Source of the DNA: Salinivirgaceae bacterium
GTDB taxonomy: Bacteria; Bacteroidota; Bacteroidia; Bacteroidales; SZUA-534
Reading direction: 5' to 3'
Assembly (NCBI GenBank): GCA_024405635.1
Contig: JAKSOL010000003.1
Span: 96,001 to 160,000, forward strand
DNA length: 64,000 nucleotides
How positions within the stretch are numbered: the first letter of the stretch is position 1; each line of letters begins with the position of its first letter. A program made the translations under genes and the position numbers. Shown one piece after another: positions 39,846-47,831 of the stretch. A model generated the notes under the pieces. It had not been told where the DNA came from. It saw nothing but the letters and a program-made list of their open reading frames with translations, and ran no database searches.

Positions 39846-41279
39846 TTATTTTTTGTCTTTTGGACCGCTTGATCCAACCATTATATTCATGCCAAATGCC
39901 ATGCTAAAGTTGTTGAAGCTATAAGGCGCGTTTATTTTCGATATTGATTTGGTTTCAGATTCAGGCAAAATGTATGAGCGATAGGTTAGCGGAATGTTAT
40001 CTATTACTGTATATAGTTGCAAAACTTTTAGGTTTATTGACATTCCCATACTTGCGGTAAGTGCACCTTTTATGCTATAGTTGAATCCTGTTGTGGCCGA
40101 AAACCAATCGTGACGTGGATTAAAGTTTGCTGAAACACTGAATTGTTGGTCGATGCTTGGTTTGGAGAATTTTGTTGCAGATAAAATACCAACGCTAAAA
40201 CATCTGCATGGTTTATATTCAGAACCAATAAGCAACGATGGTGTGAGGGCGGTTGCGTATGTTTTGTGCCCGGGTTTGGGTTTTATTTGTGTTTGAATTG
40301 AGTCGGCAATGTTTTCAAATGAATTAACCACGTTGTCGCGAATATCGTTGAGTGAACTTGTTTCGCAGTGGATACCTGTGTAGGTGTATTTGCCTTTCAT
40401 TGTTATGTTGTTGGTTTGTCGCGCCCACACTACAAAACCAATATTGTTTAGTGCTGCCGATATGCTTAGTTTTTCGTTTATATCGTATTGGGTACCAAAA
40501 TCGAATCCCCAACCAGGATTTCGCAAGCTAGGAATGAATGATTTTACACTACTATTAATGGTAATGCTATCAATTAATGCCATTTCGCCGTTTTCGTCGG
40601 TAATGTCAATAGGTAGGGCAACGTCAACTTTTCCATCAAGTTTAAGTTCCCATTTGTCTTTGCTAGTGTATAAGTCGAGTTGGTTAAACTTGGTTCTAAT
40701 ATCGGTTATACCCAAAATTTGTTTTGCGCGCACGCCTGCGGTCAAGTTGTCGGTTAGTTTTGCCGATAATGCAGCCGAAAGGTCTGTGTAAATCAAAGTG
40801 TTGAATCGAAGATCTTTGAAGCTAAGGTTTGATCCGTCGGGTAGGCCGCGGTCTATTAACTTAAATGCGTCGGAGGGAATGTTTGAGCGTAGGTCGATGT
40901 GTGCGTCATACGAAATGGTGATGTATGCTTTGCCTAGTCGAAAACCTCCGCTTAACAAACTTGTGCTAAAGTCGTTGTTTAGACTAAAACCATGTTTGTA
41001 TTTGCTGTATAGTTGATTGTATTCGAATTCTTTTTGTAAAAAAGTGTAGGTTAATCCATTTTTTTCTTGGAACAGGTTTTTTACATTGAAATTGGTGTGT
41101 AGGTTTTCGTAAAAATTAAGAACAGGAATTCCAACAAATATATTTGTGCGAGGTTGTAGTGCTGGATTGAGTTTTGTGCTTTGTGGCACATTCTCCATAA
41201 AATATAGCGATGTTGATGTTTGAGCTATTGCCCCAAAAAACAACGATGCGAACAATATTGAAAGAACTATTTTTTTCAT
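39846..41279 (-). CDS. DUF5723-like outer-membrane beta-barrel protein
   Basis: SLYFMENVPQSTKLNPALQP N-terminus, GWGFDFG, SAALNNIGFVVW, amphipathic strands. Confidence 0.7.
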   Translation of the reverse strand: MKKIVLSILFASLFFGAIAQTSTSLYFMENVPQSTKLNPALQPRTNIFVGIPVLNFYENLHTNFNVKNLFQEKNGLTYTFLQKEFEYNQLYSKYKHGFSLNNDFSTSLLSGGFRLGKAYITISYDAHIDLRSNIPSDAFKLIDRGLPDGSNLSFKDLRFNTLIYTDLSAALSAKLTDNLTAGVRAKQILGITDIRTKFNQLDLYTSKDKWELKLDGKVDVALPIDITDENGEMALIDSITINSSVKSFIPSLRNPGWGFDFGTQYDINEKLSISAALNNIGFVVWARQTNNITMKGKYTYTGIHCETSSLNDIRDNVVNSFENIADSIQTQIKPKPGHKTYATALTPSLLIGSEYKPCRCFSVGILSATKFSKPSIDQQFSVSANFNPRHDWFSATTGFNYSIKGALTASMGMSINLKVLQLYTVIDNIPLTYRSYILPESETKSISKINAPYSFNNFSMAFGMNIMVGSSGPKDKK

Positions 41280-41282
41280 TGT

Positions 41283-42899
41283 TTATTGGTTTATTAGGTT
41301 AGAGTTACTTTTTGCTTCAACGGCCATACTTATATTTAAATAGTAGTCTTTGTACAAAGGAATGAAGTTGTTGCCAGCGGTTTCGCTTGTTGTGGCTCTC
41401 GATTTTAACACAATATGTGTAACATTTGAGTTTAGACACTTTGTGGCTCGAGGGTTGTCAAGTGCAATGTTGAATGTGTTGTGGGCTGGTTGGTTGGCTA
41501 TCATATTGTTGTTTAGTTTGCAGCCTTTCCAAAGCGGGGCGGATGTGTTCATTAGCGAGTCAACAATTTTACCATCTTCAGACATAAGGTAAGCTTGTGA
41601 GTACACATCAAGTGGAATTAGGTTTTCGGTGTTGAATACAAATATTAGCGAGTCAATGGCTTCTATTGTACTATTGCTTAATTGCGACGATAGGTTAAAG
41701 TTGATGGTATCGAAACGCAGTAAATGGTTTATTCTTAAATATATGGGAACGTTTACTTCGCTCACTACACTCATTTTGTTGGTTTTGGTTATAAAGTTTT
41801 CGTCTTTTTCGCCGTCGGGATTGGTTTCAATGTTAATTGTGTGAGAAAAATGGTTTGGAAAAAGGTTAATAACTTGCTGTATGGTTGAGTTTGTTGAGTC
41901 GAATGTAAATTTGTTGTGCTTTGGCTCAAGGTTGTTCAAACTTAAGTTTGTTGAGTAAGGTATTTGTTCAATTTTAAGCGAATTGTCAATGTTGAATACC
42001 AACGGGGTGGAATCGTCTTTACAATGAAAATGCATGTCGGTTACGCTTACCTTGTATGGTATGCCGGTGTGGTTTAGTACATCAATATTTACACAAGCCC
42101 CAGCAAATTCAATTTCGTTAGGAATGTCGTAGTCTTTAAAAAATACTATTGAGCGATTGTTTTTTTGCGATAGTACAATGTTTTTACCCAAGTAGCCGTA
42201 TGCAACTTGTGGAATTAGTTTTTCGGCAACAAGGTTAAAGTTAAATTGTTGTGTTTCGTTAGAAAGGGCGGTACCTTTTATTGTAACGTTAATAGAGATG
42301 CTACTGCCGCTGCTTGTAATATCGGGGTAAATTGTGTAGCCAGTTAAGTTGGCTTGTGACGAGTAACCATCGGTTAAAGGCCATGATAGGGTGAAAGGCT
42401 CGCCATTGCGGCGAATGTTTTTTATTTCTAGTATTCCGTTTCCACTTATTTGTAGAGAAGAAATGTTTAAGACGATGGGCATGCTGTCAATAACTATTGA
42501 ATCGATGCGCTGATTGTTGTCGGTTGTAATTGCTTGGGTAATAGTAAACGACAAGTCGGCATCTTTGCCTTTTACAAGCGACACGCTATTGTTTTGTTTG
42601 CAACTAATGTTGTTTAAGTCCAAAACTTGTTCCCAACCAATTTCGCTAGTGTCGCGGTAATACACATGTAGCAAACCATTGTTGTTTGCACGTAAAACGC
42701 TACTGCTGTCTTTTGCAAAATGATTGAACAAAGCATTTACGTCGAGTTGAGTTGTGAATATTGGCGCGGCAATTTCAAGCGGGCGCGAGTATTCGTTGTA
42801 ACCAGGAGCTAGAATGGCATCGTCTTTATGGCAACTATGCATAAGCAAACAAGTTGCTGGCAATGCAATCATCAGTTTTAGTATGTTATGTTTATTCAT
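41283..42899 (-). CDS. Hypothetical lipoprotein
   Basis: Lipobox MHSC then HKDD. Beta-rich, with IAAPI, NHTGIP and ENLIPL repeats. Confidence 0.65.
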   Translation of the reverse strand: MNKHNILKLMIALPATCLLMHSCHKDDAILAPGYNEYSRPLEIAAPIFTTQLDVNALFNHFAKDSSSVLRANNNGLLHVYYRDTSEIGWEQVLDLNNISCKQNNSVSLVKGKDADLSFTITQAITTDNNQRIDSIVIDSMPIVLNISSLQISGNGILEIKNIRRNGEPFTLSWPLTDGYSSQANLTGYTIYPDITSSGSSISINVTIKGTALSNETQQFNFNLVAEKLIPQVAYGYLGKNIVLSQKNNRSIVFFKDYDIPNEIEFAGACVNIDVLNHTGIPYKVSVTDMHFHCKDDSTPLVFNIDNSLKIEQIPYSTNLSLNNLEPKHNKFTFDSTNSTIQQVINLFPNHFSHTINIETNPDGEKDENFITKTNKMSVVSEVNVPIYLRINHLLRFDTINFNLSSQLSNSTIEAIDSLIFVFNTENLIPLDVYSQAYLMSEDGKIVDSLMNTSAPLWKGCKLNNNMIANQPAHNTFNIALDNPRATKCLNSNVTHIVLKSRATTSETAGNNFIPLYKDYYLNISMAVEAKSNSNLINQ

Positions 42900-43541: not shown

Positions 43542-45338
43542 GTGCAAGAGAAAATAATTGTATTGGATTTTGGTGGACAATATGCTCACCTTATTGCAAA
43601 CAGAGTGCGCCGTTTGGGCGTTTTTACTGAAATTTGTTCTCCAACAGCACCAGTTAGCGAACTGGTAGGAGCAAAGGGCATTATATATAGTGGTGGTCCT
43701 TCAAGTGTTTATGCTGAAGATGCACCAGAGTATAATCCTGAAATTTTGGACATTCCTGTGCCAAAATTGGGAATTTGTTATGGTCACCAACTTATGGCAT
43801 CGCAGCTTGGTGGTTCGGTTCGACCAGGAAAAGTAAAGGAGTATGGCATTGCCGATCTTTTGCTAACAGAACCACAACATCCGCTTTTGAAAGATATTCC
43901 TGCATCGTCGCCAATGTGGATGAGTCATGGCGATGCTGTTGAAAAATTGCCAGAGGGTTACAAAATTATTGCATCGACTAAAGATTGCCCAATTGCCGCT
44001 GTTGCACTTGATAGTCGAAAAATATATGGAATTCAGTTCCATCCCGAAGTAACTCACAGCAAATATGGCATGAAGATTCTTGATAACTTTATTGACATCT
44101 GTGGCTGCCAACGTACTTGGAACATGAAGAGCTACATGCCGCTTATTTCCGAAAAAATTAAAAACGAAGTTGGCAATCGCAAAGTGTTCTTGCTTGTTTC
44201 GGGAGGTGTTGATAGTACAGTTGCTTTTGTGCTCCTAAACAAAGTGCTTGGAACCGACCGTGTTCTTGGCCTTCATATCGACAACGGTATGATGCGTATG
44301 GACGAGAGCCAAAAGATTATTGAGTTTCTTAACGCTTCGGGTATGAACAATCTTCGCGTTGTTGATGCAACCGATTCATTCCTTGGTCGTCTTGAGGGAA
44401 TTACCGCTCCAGAAGAAAAGCGCAAGCGCATTGGTGCAACATTCCTTGTTGTTAAAGATGAGGAAATGGCTAAACTGAACCTCGATCCAAAAGAGTGGAT
44501 GATTGCTCAAGGAACTATTTATCCTGATACTATTGAAAGTGGCGGCACAAAGAATGCCGACCTAATTAAAACCCACCACAACCGTGTGCAAGAGGTGATG
44601 GACTTAATGGCACAAGGACTTCTTCTTGAGCCACTTGCCGACCTTTACAAAGACGAGGTTCGTATGCTTGGCGAGGAACTTGGCATTCCTCACAATCTTG
44701 TATGGCGCCACCCATTTCCAGGCCCAGGCCTTGGCGTGCGCATGCTTTGCACCGATGGCAAAGGCGAATTTGCAACCAATGCCGAAGTGGCAGGTTTGGC
44801 CGAGTATTTGAAAGAAAACAACATTGAAGGCAAAGTGTTGCCAATTAAGAGTGTTGGCGTGCAAGGCGACGGCCGCACATACGCGCAACCATTTTTGCTA
44901 ACAACCAAAAACCTAACATGGAAGCAATGTGAGAAATTTAGCACCGAATTGGTAAACCGTTTTAAGGTGATAAACCGTGTTATTTGGCAAGTTGGCTCGG
45001 TAAGCGACGATGATCCAAAACTTGTTGAGCAATATGCAACCAAAGACAAGTTCGACACCTTGCGCAAGTTTGACAACATTTGCACCGAGTTTTTGCAAGA
45101 GAACAACTTGTACGAGTCAATTTGGCAAATGCCAGTTGTGTTGGTTCCGCTTACAGTACAAGACAAACCTTGCATTGTGATGCGTCCAGTAAACAGCTCG
45201 GAGGCTATGACAGCCAACTTTGCCGAGATTGACCAAAAACTTCTTGAAGGACTTTGGGGCCGCTTTGTAGCCGAAGGCGCAGGTTCGCTTTGGTACGATG
45301 TTACCCACAAGCCTCCAGGCACTATTGAGTGGGAATAG
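43542..45338 (+). CDS. guaA: GMP synthase (glutamine-hydrolysing), long form
   Basis: LDFGGQY, SGGPSSV, LGICYGHQ, QFHPEV, SGGVDS, QGTIYPDTIES, IKTHHN, RHPFPGPGL, KPPGTIEWE. Confidence 0.96.
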   Translation: MQEKIIVLDFGGQYAHLIANRVRRLGVFTEICSPTAPVSELVGAKGIIYSGGPSSVYAEDAPEYNPEILDIPVPKLGICYGHQLMASQLGGSVRPGKVKEYGIADLLLTEPQHPLLKDIPASSPMWMSHGDAVEKLPEGYKIIASTKDCPIAAVALDSRKIYGIQFHPEVTHSKYGMKILDNFIDICGCQRTWNMKSYMPLISEKIKNEVGNRKVFLLVSGGVDSTVAFVLLNKVLGTDRVLGLHIDNGMMRMDESQKIIEFLNASGMNNLRVVDATDSFLGRLEGITAPEEKRKRIGATFLVVKDEEMAKLNLDPKEWMIAQGTIYPDTIESGGTKNADLIKTHHNRVQEVMDLMAQGLLLEPLADLYKDEVRMLGEELGIPHNLVWRHPFPGPGLGVRMLCTDGKGEFATNAEVAGLAEYLKENNIEGKVLPIKSVGVQGDGRTYAQPFLLTTKNLTWKQCEKFSTELVNRFKVINRVIWQVGSVSDDDPKLVEQYATKDKFDTLRKFDNICTEFLQENNLYESIWQMPVVLVPLTVQDKPCIVMRPVNSSEAMTANFAEIDQKLLEGLWGRFVAEGAGSLWYDVTHKPPGTIEWE

Positions 45339-45350
45339 AAGATTTGTGAT

Positions 45351-45376
45351 ATAGAGGCGCCGAAAGGGGCCTCTAT
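45351..45376 (+). terminator. Hairpin after guaA
   Basis: atagaggcgcc-gaaa-ggggcctctat with a GNRA loop and a weak T-tract. Confidence 0.6.
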
Positions 45377-45399: not shown

Positions 45400-45493
45400 A
45401 CGAAAAACATAACCAACTATGGTAAGCAAATACAAAATAAATCTCCCCACAGAAAACGAATTACAAGATTATTTGTCGAAAATTGAAATATAA
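45400..45493 (+). pseudogene. 3'-end relic resembling YhcG/DUF1016 nuclease-like genes
   Basis: (HNQL)/MVSKYKINLPTENELQDYL resembles the SKYxxxLPxxxEL C-terminus of that family. Frameshifted, and the rest of the gene is missing. Confidence 0.4.
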
Positions 45494-45581
45494 ACAAATG
45501 AAAATTAAAGAATTAAAGTAATAAATAGAAATAATTTTAGACTAACATATTATTAATCATAGCGTTTGCTATTTGTTCCAT

Positions 45582-45773
45582 CGAACTGAAACGTAGGAAA
45601 TTTCAAAACTGATGAAGGAATAAAGACAAAAGTGCAAACGTCCGTCATAGGCGGGCGTCTCTTGTCGTTCCTTCTGGTTTCCTACGACCACAGTTCGGGC
45701 AGGTTTCGCCCGTTCTTTATGTCGTAGGTTGTAAGAAGGACATTGGCAATTCGCTTAATAGCAAGTTGCCATG
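45582..45773 (+). ncRNA. Structured RNA leader upstream of the R-M genes (unassigned family)
   Basis: Five nested helices spanning 45582-45697, an alternative pairing with 45721-45740, and a hairpin running into the ATG. G-U pairs favour the + strand. Confidence 0.55.
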
Positions 45774-47831
45774 GCGAAAAGTATTGAAGAAAAAATCGAG
45801 GATATTGCTAAAAAGCAACTCGACAGATTTGGTGTGAAGTATCACATAAAGACGGACAACATAAATAGCGAGATTGACAATGCTCTGCAAAGCGCAAAGT
45901 CAAAGTCGGGAAATGATGGAGGTAACTATCCCGACATCAAGTGTCTGATTCAGTTACCACAAAGTCAGAAGTTTGTTCCTGTAATGATAGAGGTTAAAGG
46001 AACAAAGGGAGATTTCGCAAAAATCGAGGATGGAGAGGTCGCCAATTATGACGATAACGGCAAACCTATTTATAAACACATTAAGAAGTACGCTGTGAAT
46101 GGGGCCGTGCATTATTCGGAAGCCATAGCAAAAATCACTAAATCATATAGCGATGTTATAGCCATCGGATTCAACGGCTTTGATGCGTCGGGAAATGCTG
46201 AGCCGACAACAGAAATGGGTGTATATTATGTGAGCAAATCGAACATGTATTGCCCCAAGAAGGTGGGAGATTACAGCGATTTCTCTTTCTTGAAGGCAGA
46301 AAATGGCTCGATTTTAGAGGAAAGGCTTAACGCCATACTGCTTTCTGACGAGGAAAAGGAACGCCAAACTCGTGAGTTGGAGGATAGAATTGAAAATACC
46401 CTTGCCGAACTTAATCAGGATATGCGAGACAAGATGCGTGTGTCGGAGCCTAAAGATCGATTGAAGTTGGTGTGTGCTTTGATAATGGCAGCTCTTGGCG
46501 TGGAAGGGAAAATTCCGCCTCTTGAAATTGCCGATTTAAGAGGTTTACAAACCGAAGATGACCACGATGGAGCTATTATTTTGCGAAAGATAAAAGTGTT
46601 TTTGAACGAAAAACATATACCACAAGAAAAGCTCGACAATATATATTCGCTCTATAAAGGAATACTGAACGACGCTCTTTATTATCGGGCAATAAACGGC
46701 GAAAGCACGATAAAGACAGCCTTTATTTATGTGAAGGAAGAAATTATGCCAATCTTTACTATGGGAGAGGAAGTGCATATTGATTTTACTGGAAAACTGC
46801 TCAATGTGTTGACAGGTTGGATTACGGAGCGTGCAAGTGATGATGAAAGAAATGATGTTGTGCTTACTCCTCGATATGTTACCGAACTGATGGCAAAGCT
46901 ATGCAAAGTGAACAAGGATAGTTATGTTTGGGACTGGGCGACTGGCAGTGCTGGTTTTCTTGTCTCTGCTATGAAGTTGATGATTGACGATGCCAACAAA
47001 ACAATCCAAAGCGAAGATGAGCGAAAAGCAAAGATTGCAAAGATAAAAGTGGATCAGCTGCTTGGTATAGAGCTTAGGCAGGATATTTATGTTCTTGCCG
47101 TGCTTAATATGATTCTGATGAAAGATGGTTCAAGCCACATCTTGAATAAGGATTCGCTAAATGAATACAACGGAAAATATGAGCAGGGAAAAAATAAAGA
47201 TGATGAGTTCCCTGCCGATGTGTTCCTATTAAATCCTCCCTATTCGGCGGAAGGTAAAGGTTTTGTCTTTGTAGAAAAGGCTTTGAATCGAATGAACAAA
47301 GGTCGTGCGGCTGTGATTATTCAGGAAAATGCAGGAGGTGGCAAAGGCGATGGCTTTACTAAAAACATTTTGAAGCATAGCACATTGTTGGCTTCCATTC
47401 GTATGCCAATAGATTTGTTTATAGGCAAATCGAGTGTGCAGACTGCAATCTATTTGTTCGAGGTGGGGACACCACATGATACAGAGAGTCTTGTTACATT
47501 TGTAGATTTTAGTAATGATGGTTATGCCCGACAGAACCGCAAGAAATCAAACTCTAAAGTGAATTTGAAAGATGTGGATCATGTAAAGGAACGCTATGCA
47601 GAGTTGGTGGATATTGTACTTAATCGTAAGACAAAGACAAACTATTACACTGAGGCGAACGGACTTGTGGTGAAAGATTCCATTTCGCTCGAAGGCAACG
47701 ATTGGACATTCAATCAGCATCGCAAGATTGACACTATGCCAACCGAAGCAGATTTCCGCAAGACTGTTTCAGACTATTTGAGTTGGAAACTCTCAACCAT
47801 CATTAAGGAGGACGCTGCAAATTTTCAGTAA
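45771..47831 (+). CDS. Type IIB/IIG (BcgI-like) fused endonuclease-N6-adenine methyltransferase subunit
   Basis: N-terminal YPD...MIEVKG (PD-ExK), VVLTPRYV, motif I DWATGSAGF, motif IV LLNPPY (gamma order). Confidence 0.85.
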   Translation: MAKSIEEKIEDIAKKQLDRFGVKYHIKTDNINSEIDNALQSAKSKSGNDGGNYPDIKCLIQLPQSQKFVPVMIEVKGTKGDFAKIEDGEVANYDDNGKPIYKHIKKYAVNGAVHYSEAIAKITKSYSDVIAIGFNGFDASGNAEPTTEMGVYYVSKSNMYCPKKVGDYSDFSFLKAENGSILEERLNAILLSDEEKERQTRELEDRIENTLAELNQDMRDKMRVSEPKDRLKLVCALIMAALGVEGKIPPLEIADLRGLQTEDDHDGAIILRKIKVFLNEKHIPQEKLDNIYSLYKGILNDALYYRAINGESTIKTAFIYVKEEIMPIFTMGEEVHIDFTGKLLNVLTGWITERASDDERNDVVLTPRYVTELMAKLCKVNKDSYVWDWATGSAGFLVSAMKLMIDDANKTIQSEDERKAKIAKIKVDQLLGIELRQDIYVLAVLNMILMKDGSSHILNKDSLNEYNGKYEQGKNKDDEFPADVFLLNPPYSAEGKGFVFVEKALNRMNKGRAAVIIQENAGGGKGDGFTKNILKHSTLLASIRMPIDLFIGKSSVQTAIYLFEVGTPHDTESLVTFVDFSNDGYARQNRKKSNSKVNLKDVDHVKERYAELVDIVLNRKTKTNYYTEANGLVVKDSISLEGNDWTFNQHRKIDTMPTEADFRKTVSDYLSWKLSTIIKEDAANFQ

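Follow-up and report, generated by a model that had tools for sequence, protein, structure and literature searches.

A widespread family of structured leader RNAs upstream of restriction-modification and surface genes in Bacteroidota

Introduction

In the c4 RNA of P1 and the CI RNA of P4 (Rfam family C4, RF01695), the antisense bases are displayed in loops and their target lies over the ribosome-binding region of the next gene. The put (HK022) and EAR RNAs are structured processive antitermination RNAs that follow the promoters of accessory or surface operons and precede terminators, while C-proteins are DNA-binding controllers of the expression of restriction-modification (R-M) systems. We describe here a structured RNA element that invites comparison with all of these. 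It lies directly upstream of a type IIG R-M system in a stretch of 64,000 nucleotides (nt) from the genome of a Salinivirgaceae bacterium (GenBank assembly GCA_024405635.1, contig JAKSOL010000003.1, positions 96,001 to 160,000 of the forward strand), which we call the window and whose coordinates are used throughout. The element comprises a small 5' hairpin (P0), a long rod of nested stems (P1 to P5; fold A), a terminator-like hairpin with a U-rich run and, behind this, a segment that we call the anti-rod, with which the 3' strand of the rod can pair instead (fold B; Table 1). It is a member of a widespread, multi-copy family of structured RNAs of Bacteroidota that is not catalogued in Rfam.

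The preliminary description of this locus had likened it to c4 and CI RNA immunity, and the layout that suggested this is indeed present: 45592-600 and 45721-28 both complement 45678-88, such that one segment is flanked by two complementary copies in a single transcript, and a short RNA and a longer message would share the same promoter. The identity itself does not stand. Rfam C4 finds no match, the antisense bases of the leader lie within the P2 helix rather than in loops, and the downstream copy stops short of the ribosome-binding region, its end at 45740 being 31 nt away from the ATG; moreover, the genes that follow are not phage immunity genes, and most members of the family have no downstream copy. 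The comparison with c4 is an analogy of layout only.

With attenuators of the trp and pyr type, T-box leaders and riboswitch platforms, the element has in common its position as a co-oriented 5' leader, a terminator-like hairpin and U-run before the gene and the presence of covarying, mutually exclusive pairings, but it has no leader peptide, tRNA-binding features or known aptamer. It differs also in that the partner of the arm preceding its U-run would be the apex of a long rod and not an adjacent segment, and in that the competing segment of R-M leaders lies after the terminator, where it cannot affect termination at that site. The likeness to put and EAR is one of position, with no similarity of sequence or model. 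A leader of this kind would meet the same need as a C-protein, that of keeping and timing a restriction enzyme, but it would do so through RNA and within a family that also serves genes other than R-M.

Among noncoding RNAs of Bacteroidota, the FopS and GibS RNAs of Bacteroides are likewise a conserved multi-copy family with their own promoters and terminators; PMC11697453 describes FopS as a single-stranded 5' seed with a terminator hairpin behind it, acting in trans on susC messages, and reports its deposition in Rfam. As FopS and GibS are characterised there (PMC11697453), identity with them is ruled out, the leader being a long cis rod before a gene and unmatched in Rfam. We found no description of the leader RNA in the literature searched. 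Large candidate lists such as that of PMC8040213 may include it under a number, one example being a 108-bp candidate of Bacteroidetes, reported as expressed, in the neighbourhood of radical SAM and Dam genes, and three candidates of that list (HMP2_1881, HMP2_1032 and HMP2_4078) may overlap the leader family; the letters of our search motif were not found in those supplement files of PMC8040213 that were searched.

Occurring in about one third of the sampled Bacteroidales families, and sometimes in at least 16 copies per genome, the leader would rank among the commoner regulatory RNAs of a phylum in which gene regulation past transcription start is poorly known. To our knowledge, Bacteroidota lack Hfq, ProQ and the classical use of Shine-Dalgarno sequences. 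The genes behind it, for phage defence and the cell surface, shape how gut and rumen bacteria resist phages and interact with their hosts, and the leader is also a candidate explanation for the restraint of R-M systems that are fused or have no C-protein.

A multi-copy family of structured leaders

By BLAST, the element is recovered once within the window's genome; counting that genome, 14 of 61 related genomes give weak matches, which have the rod base in common. A degenerate 19-letter motif was taken from the rod base and searched in a collection of species-representative genomes, where it occurs at 121 loci or more. Among the matches listed, 106 of 121 carry an exact 7-nt complement of the P2 strand 60-175 nt downstream, while the remaining 15 fit chance matches; the carriers in this list are mostly Bacteroidota (Prevotella and relatives, Paludibacteraceae, Alistipes, Muribaculaceae, Chitinophagaceae, Mucilaginibacter and Sediminibacterium), together with a few Kiritimatiellae. 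Being found by motif, this sample is skewed to the subtype of the window itself.

A single covariance model (R1), used for short and long forms alike, was run with strict search filters, under which 'not found' does not mean 'absent'. It finds five copies in the window's own genome, only one of which is recovered by BLAST. In a sample of the order, with roughly one genome per family, R1 matches 47 of 151 genomes, with up to 16 matches or more in a genome (the best 18 candidates per genome being scored); in a sample of the phylum it matches 15 of 151, and every match falls within the window's class. Under these strict filters the two most-sampled families gave no match (0 of 31 and 0 of 22 genomes). 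Many of the copies in the order sample lie 150-900 bases from contig ends in fragmented assemblies (e.g., genomes G047, G223 and G255), which suggests that assemblies break there because of the repetition of the leader or of a sequence immediately 5' of it.

All of these loci share a layout, in which P0 and a linker are followed by P1 (variable, 6-9 bp), a loop with UGAAAC opposite RCCNCA, P2, a variable interior and finally a hairpin with a U-run. The rod interior measures approximately 90-108 nt in the short forms and 124-198 nt in the long forms, and its apical helix is rich in G+C. Since the same layout recurs with covariation at well over 100 loci in other genomes, the fold architecture is beyond chance. 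In the window the rod is the RNAfold optimum of the + strand over 45575-45780 (-76.3 kcal/mol, z -6.57, with none of 200 shuffles as good), and every stem of fold A, fold B and the start-codon hairpin in the preliminary description was found in place by direct reading, three of them being listed by a repeat finder as well. The - strand of the same region folds almost as well (z -6.27) because the region is nearly palindromic.

Searches of Rfam 15 left the element unmatched in the window at expectation values (E) up to 10, where the one chance match (PYLIS_2, E 2.5) falls on the terminator of the upstream guaA gene, as well as in seven related loci (E up to 1) and 12 more (E up to 0.1), C4 being among the models searched. 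Other Rfam matches lie off the element: a tRNA at locus L056 and a sub-threshold Gut-1-like match at locus L178. The tRNA gene (L056:2157-2238) stands about 260 nt 5' of a long-form leader.

Covariation and the nature of the element

Homologous leaders had been expected to show covariation, and they do so strongly. An alignment of 76 short forms was made with MAFFT and scored for the structure P0, P1, P2 and P5, leaving out P3 and P4, the middle of the rod aligning poorly. Under this structure 92.0% of cells are paired, against 77.4% in shuffles and 38-46% when the partners are slid, and the covariation score is 0.418, against 0.157 in shuffles (0 of 500 reach the real value) and 0.06-0.11 for slid partners. 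Both sides have changed 21-46 times per variable pair in P1, which had no role in the selection of loci, and both-side changes are also numerous in P5. The 25 relatives found by the model have quite different letters in P2 and yet keep its pairing (e.g., CUUGGCGG/CCGCCAAG, CUGGACAA/UUGUCCAG and CUACCAC/GUGGUAG).

In P0, all three modelled pairs show both-side changes in relatives (for instance GCGUU/AACGC and AGUUA/UAACU), and 86.8% of cells are paired. A palindromic DNA site at this position is conceivable, but the sequence of P0 varies with complementarity kept, and for this reason we favour an RNA hairpin. A near-palindromic promoter motif of B. thetaiotaomicron, 'PM2', is described in PMC7366714. 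One further hairpin considered, UGAAA/UUUCA on the 5' strand of the rod, was set aside as weakly supported, its one informative pair (n=25) being GC in 13 cases, GU in four, UG in one, AU in two, CG in one and a non-pair in four.

Within the apical helix of the 76 short forms, 82 of 380 cells are G-U or U-G. Such pairs would be A-C mismatches on the other strand, and their frequency fits an RNA of the + strand, not the opposite strand or DNA. This bears on a reading of the element at the level of DNA, as an invertible or recombination site, a cruciform or a miniature mobile repeat before variable genes. The near-palindromic sequence that folds on both strands, the multiple copies, a gene set like that of phase-variable genes and the occurrence of different methylase genes behind one conserved long-form leader in Prevotella-like relatives would all suit such an element. 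Besides the abundance of G-U pairs, however, it is opposed by the strict orientation of the downstream genes (see below), by an interior that is self-complementary throughout and leaves no space for an invertible promoter, by the strong divergence of copies within one genome (with a single BLAST match among five) and by their near-absence from mobile DNA: the motif pattern occurs at three loci in viral contigs, and BLAST of the element gives no record in a plasmid collection and one partial match to a phage-like record. We consider a DNA element extremely improbable. A Bacteroidales inverton in particular was rejected at the level of sequence, since the interior, which should then be a non-palindromic promoter segment between inverted repeats, is self-complementary throughout, G-U pairs are common and the orientation is fixed.

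Candidate promoter, terminator-like hairpin and competing pairings

A candidate -7 box, TAATTTTA, precedes P0 in the window, and is so named after TAnnTTTG, which we take to be the Bacteroidota -7 consensus; the predicted start is near 45544-45547. Of 91 boxes of this type in relatives, 60 lie 60-100 nt before the conserved GAAAC, while the corresponding bins of a control region hold 7 of 44, and sequence conservation reaches to about 45 nt 5' of the rod. Starting from the candidate promoter, the transcribed 5' leader of the type IIG operon would span 45544-45770. The 50 nt between the U-run and the ATG contain no promoter-like TTTG, and the enzyme therefore probably relies on transcription through the leader.

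A U-run follows P2 at a distance of 20-75 nt in 94 of 111 loci. In the window, a terminator scan called the hairpin 45696-45712, followed by TTCTTTAT, terminator-like, and its 5' arm overlaps P1 by 2 nt. The family also shows complementarity between the 12 nt before the U-run and the interior of the rod, which reaches at least 7 nt in 39 of 98 loci, while control 12-mers do so in 6, 3 and 3 of 98. Most of the matches in short forms are located at 0.56-0.68 of the interior, that is, on the 3' strand of the apical helix, and the arm and the apex change together (CCACGCC/GGCGUGG, GCCCGCAU/AUGCGGGC and CUCACGC/GCGUGAG). The window conforms: CGCCCG at 45707-12, the 3' arm of the terminator made one base wider, complements CGGGCG at 45652-57 in the 3' strand of the apex. 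The 3' arm of the terminator, matching both the local 5' arm and the apex, has two possible partners. On these statistics the family appears to possess a conserved alternative pairing that would exclude the terminator.

A second competition, between P1 and the terminator, is more restricted. When the terminator is included in the fold, at least two pairs of P1 are lost by 14 of the 66 short forms and by 10 of the 28 long ones. Were the element a small-molecule riboswitch, the rod base would be its aptamer and this competition its output; much as such a reading would predict, the conserved nucleotides cluster in internal loops beside P1, the stems are of variable length and show covariation, and behind the rod there is a terminator with which P1 overlaps in some members. 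Against this, the overlap is limited to a minority, a genome may hold up to 16 copies or more, and the genes downstream (DNA methylases, restriction helicases, fimbrillins, TonB receptors, lipoproteins and secretion cargo) have no metabolic theme, which together make a riboswitch in this sense a poor prospect in our estimation.

The opposite possibility is that nothing switches at all, the leader being a constitutive 5'-end stabiliser with a leaky terminator that damps expression, or else a stand-alone small RNA that lies upstream by chance. As this would have it, the optimum predicted for most members accommodates both the rod and the terminator (55 of 66 short forms retain P1). Position-specific, covarying alternative pairings would be unexpected of a passive stabiliser, however, and a small RNA gene placed by chance would not have the next gene co-oriented in 55 of 56 cases; we think a constitutive leader or independent small RNA unlikely.

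The anti-rod segment and fold B

To trace fold B across the family, the 3' strand of the rod (the P2 3' strand, the loop and the start of P1) was compared with the 100 nt beginning 25 nt past P2, and the longest stretch of Watson-Crick complementarity was recorded. Of 119 loci, 37 have a complement of at least 7 nt, which without exception lies 34-68 nt past P2, just behind the U-run; in 27 of the 119, no more than 5% of shuffles match as well. Real sequences used as controls agree: where 25 of 84 loci have the complement, it appears in 2 of 84 at a position 200 nt further downstream and in 3 of 84 upstream. Rod and partner vary in concert (CCUACGAC/GUCGUAGG in the window, and CCGACGGC/GCCGUCGG, ACGACCGCA/UGCGGUCGU and AGGACCUCA/UGAGGUCCU in relatives), and the matches take in loop bases that are unpaired in fold A. 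Anti-rods were found in 17 of 33 R-M leaders and in 4 of 42 others (Fisher p ~8e-5, with kin that are not independent). The two mutually exclusive pairings first noticed in the window are thereby substantiated, the fold B partner covarying with the 3' strand of the rod, being specific in position and being enriched before R-M genes. Judged by this pattern, fold B is evolutionarily maintained, mainly in front of R-M genes.

The window's genome illustrates the distinction. Its second R-M-linked leader, on contig C31, has a perfect anti-rod match of 15 nt whose sequence is unrelated to the 8 nt of the window, and a complement scan found no anti-rod in the three other copies (contigs C34, C8 and C27). 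When 13 R-M leaders are folded through the start codon, fold B is predicted to be more stable than fold A in 11, by 1.6-6.6 kcal/mol, the exceptions being the window, where fold A is better by 1.9, and one other, where it is better by 0.2. Predicted accessibility of the start site ranges from 0.18 to 0.69 across the 13 leaders; in the window it passes from 0.18 to 0.31, and the others shift in either direction.

These features raise the possibility of a c4-like antisense control, in which the short terminated rod RNA would act in trans, pairing with the anti-rod and repressing the R-M genes after a delay, thereby providing feedback without a C-protein. The placing of one segment between two complementary copies, the specificity of the anti-rod for R-M leaders and the presence in one genome of two R-M leaders with unrelated and mutually orthogonal pairing sequences (8 nt and 15 nt) would all be expected of such control. 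Yet the would-be antisense strand is inside a long helix and is not displayed in a loop; pairing in cis accounts for the same complementarity and is kinetically favoured; the predicted accessibility of a start codon lying 31 nt beyond the target is unaffected by the pairing; and neither the lack of an Rfam C4 match nor the absence of the anti-rod in most of the family is as expected. Antisense control of this type is in our view doubtful.

A more general form of the same idea treats the promoter, short RNA, terminator and anti-RNA site as a module, the short RNA throttling its own R-M operon in trans through locus-specific pairing, with another output stage at surface genes across Bacteroidota. 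If this were true, a system newly arrived in a naive cell would at first express restriction and would be throttled as its short RNA accumulates, making the module an RNA-only counterpart of C-protein control, but we think it improbable.

Genes downstream of the leader

In the 56 loci assessed, the nearest long open reading frame (ORF) downstream is co-oriented with the leader in 55, at a median gap of 90 nt, while the upstream ORF is co-oriented in 37. In the window the 3' strand of P2 ends at 45686 and the ATG is at 45771. We surveyed the ORFs that follow the motif, as had been proposed, and found R-M or DNA methylase genes and envelope or surface proteins to predominate. Of 74 ORFs in the motif-found sample, 32 belong to the former group (C5, N6, D12, N4/N6, EcoRI-type and Eco57I-type methylases, SNF2/PLD helicase-nucleases and GmrSD/HNH) and 18 to the latter (fimbrillin, BspA-type leucine-rich repeat proteins, TonB receptors, porins, PAP2, GtrA, acyltransferase and CsgG), with three others and 21 without a Pfam family. 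The model-found ORFs of the order sample number 25, comprising six R-M or DNA methylase genes, 12 without a Pfam family and a remainder made up mostly of signal-peptide proteins, including type IX secretion cargo; among the 21 of the phylum sample there are six TonB-dependent receptors, 12 ORFs without a Pfam family and one R-M gene, which is the second copy in the window's genome, recognised by PADLOC.

The supposed link with R-M systems must accordingly be narrowed: R-M genes are prominent downstream, but the leader is not specific to them, since TonB-dependent receptors, lipoproteins and secretion cargo follow it too. The element is a general cis leader of accessory genes, with R-M strongly over-represented within Bacteroidales. 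Where the surroundings of loci were read, no regulator gene consistently adjoins the leaders. At one locus (L040), a short frame comes right after the anti-rod, between the leader and a 156-aa ORF; it is helix-turn-helix-like by eye and, if real, could be a controller-type regulator.

The position of the element, after a promoter, before a terminator and ahead of diverse accessory operons (R-M, surface and TonB receptor genes), is also that of a processive antiterminator of the put or EAR type. In that case the rod, with its near-invariant internal loops, would bind the transcribing RNA polymerase and enable it to resist the next terminator and later stops, with no ligand involved. This would leave the covarying pairings with the terminator arm or the anti-rod unexplained, and we know of no need for covarying alternative pairings in put or EAR RNAs; nor do the put and EAR RNAs in Rfam show similarity to the element in sequence or model. 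We rate processive antitermination as distinctly unlikely.

Seven loci of one genus (L008, L009, L010, L011, L012, L016 and L018) have a near-identical long-form leader of 174 nt followed by differing methylase genes, these being unrelated C5 methylases and one D12 methylase according to species, and five of the seven loci have upstream ORFs with matching ends. The pattern looks like cassette exchange behind a fixed leader.

A proposed mechanism

A conserved, co-oriented leader with a terminator-like stop before the gene and at least two covarying alternative pairings carries the signature of an attenuator or riboswitch-type platform. Our preferred proposal, to which we would give an even chance, is that the element is a cis-acting leader of the attenuator type that probably sets the expression level of the gene downstream. 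Transcription would begin at a promoter about 40 nt 5' of the rod and would pass through P0, a rod of about 115 nt with near-invariant loops at its base, and the terminator-like hairpin with its U-run. By default, transcription would often end at the U-run and yield a short RNA of about 175 nt. Whether it continues into the gene would be set by competing pairings of the arm before the U-run, which could join its local partner to form the terminator or could join the 3' strand of the rod apex, and in part of the family the bases that P1 shares with the 5' arm of the terminator would introduce a further competition. The conserved loops of the rod base would be the probable docking site for an effector, which might be a protein, a small ligand or RNA polymerase itself. 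In those transcripts that read through into R-M genes, the anti-rod would take the 3' strand of the rod from the 5' strand, resulting in fold B and a shape unlike that of the short terminated RNA. Fold B might possibly serve to release the effector, to alter how stable the message is or how it is processed, or to present a site to which the short RNA could bind in trans.

Several points weigh against this proposal. We infer transcription, the 5' and 3' ends, termination, the direction of the switch and the effector from sequence comparison. The pairing of the pre-U-run arm with the apex would need the apical helix to open or a pseudoknot to form, and is energetically unproven. A local terminator hairpin is part of the predicted optimum in 22 of 66 short forms and 5 of 28 long forms (27 of 94), and the logic may vary by subfamily. 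The terminator of the window is itself weak, with 5 pairs, a 7-nt loop and an interrupted U-run, and fold A exceeds fold B there by about 2 kcal/mol (1.9) in predicted stability. Two simpler forms of the mechanism found no support: a universal competition of P1 with the terminator, which the retention of P1 in 55 of 66 short forms confines to a minority, and a gating of the start codon by fold B, predicted accessibility showing no consistent difference between the folds in the 13 leaders. Finally, the motif-found sample was picked by part of P2 and its complement, such that its P2 covariation is partly by construction and the independent support comes from P1, P5 and the model-found set; the related genomes, too, are not independent of one another. 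The family is nonetheless a ready test case, offering several covarying alternative pairings that could be locked or broken in reporters.

Gene neighbourhood and other copies

The preliminary description had taken the gene behind the leader to be a fused nuclease-methylase without a C-protein, and both parts of this are upheld. The 686-aa product matches the PADLOC profile REase_MTase_IIG at full length (E 4.9e-177, residues 2-681); its N6 methylase domain occupies residues 364-612, and its N-terminal half has, by eye, a nuclease signature of the PD...EVK type. With nuclease and N6 methylase in a single chain and a separate specificity subunit, the system has the features of the type IIG class. 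Among the ORFs of the window, as read by Pfam and PADLOC, there is no controller-protein gene between the leader and the enzyme. Beyond the specificity subunit lie an AsnC-type regulator and serine hydroxymethyltransferase. Hairpins comparable to that at the start codon can be drawn by eye in some relatives, and we make no claim for its conservation.

Table 1. Features of the leader, of its neighbours in the window and of the other copies in the same genome
Feature	Coordinates	Strand	Remarks
guaA, GMP synthase	43542-45338		upstream of the leader; own terminator hairpin after it
Hairpin, 11 bp, G+C-rich, then T-rich run	45351-45376		directly after guaA; probably the guaA terminator
Candidate Bacteroidota -7 box TAATTTTA	45532..45539	+	predicted start near 45544-45547
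P0 hairpin UAGC-GUUU-GCUA	45560..45571	+	small 5' hairpin ahead of the rod
Rod (fold A)	45582..45697	+	P1-P5 nested; RNAfold, direct reading and repeat finder
P1	45582-88 CGAACTG / 45691-97 CAGTTCG	+	stem at the rod base
Internal loop at the rod base	AAA 45589-91 opposite ACCA 45687-90	+	
P2	45592-600 / 45678-86	+	repeat finder I16: 9 nt, 100% complementary
P3	45614-20 / 45668-74	+	rod interior
P4	45625-29 / 45662-66	+	rod interior
P5 (apical)	45638-46 / 45650-58	+	9 pairs, 2 of them G-U
Terminator-like hairpin CGGGC / 7-nt loop / GCCCG and U-rich run UUCUUUAU	45696..45720	+	terminator scan
Anti-rod (3' arm of fold B)	45721..45740	+	GUCGUAGG with 45681-88; AGAAGGA with 45669-75
Fold B arms	45669-88 / 45721-40	+	enclosing hairpin 45696-45712; repeat finder I1: 20 nt, 75% complementary
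Start-codon hairpin UGGCAA.../...UUGCCA	45744-55 / 45760-71	+	repeat finder I11: 12 nt, 83%; last base is the A of the AUG at 45771
Type IIG restriction enzyme-methyltransferase, 686 aa	45771..47831	+	Pfam N6_Mtase 1.4e-22; PADLOC REase_MTase_IIG PDLC03616
Specificity subunit, 406 aa	47840..49060	+	Pfam Methylase_S 5e-13; PADLOC Specificity_II 3.8e-19
Second R-M-linked leader, same genome	contig C31:66001-66168 (L142; L167:2001-2168)		followed by a 345-aa type II methylase and a 1335-aa helicase/Eco57I-type type IIG enzyme
Long-form copy, same genome	contig C34:14801-15005		found by R1
Long-form copy, same genome	contig C8:40387-40611	-	found by R1
Long-form copy, same genome	contig C27:206-408	-	found by R1

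Of the three long-form copies in the window's genome, one stands before a surface protein with Listeria-Bacteroides repeats, one before a lipoprotein-like ORF, and the third before a short open frame that is cut by the contig end 205 bases from the match. Upstream of the leader on contig C31 are two DUF1016/YhcG PD-(D/E)XK nuclease genes, one of them short and possibly a fragment.

Within the window, the guaA terminator and the leader are separated by a very A+T-rich spacer of about 160 nt (45400-45560), which contains the short inverted repeats I3, I6 and I14 of the repeat finder and is probably a promoter region. Further upstream, and unrelated to the leader, the - strand encodes a DUF5723 protein (39846-41279) and an adjoining protein of 538 aa (41283-42899) that has no Pfam family.

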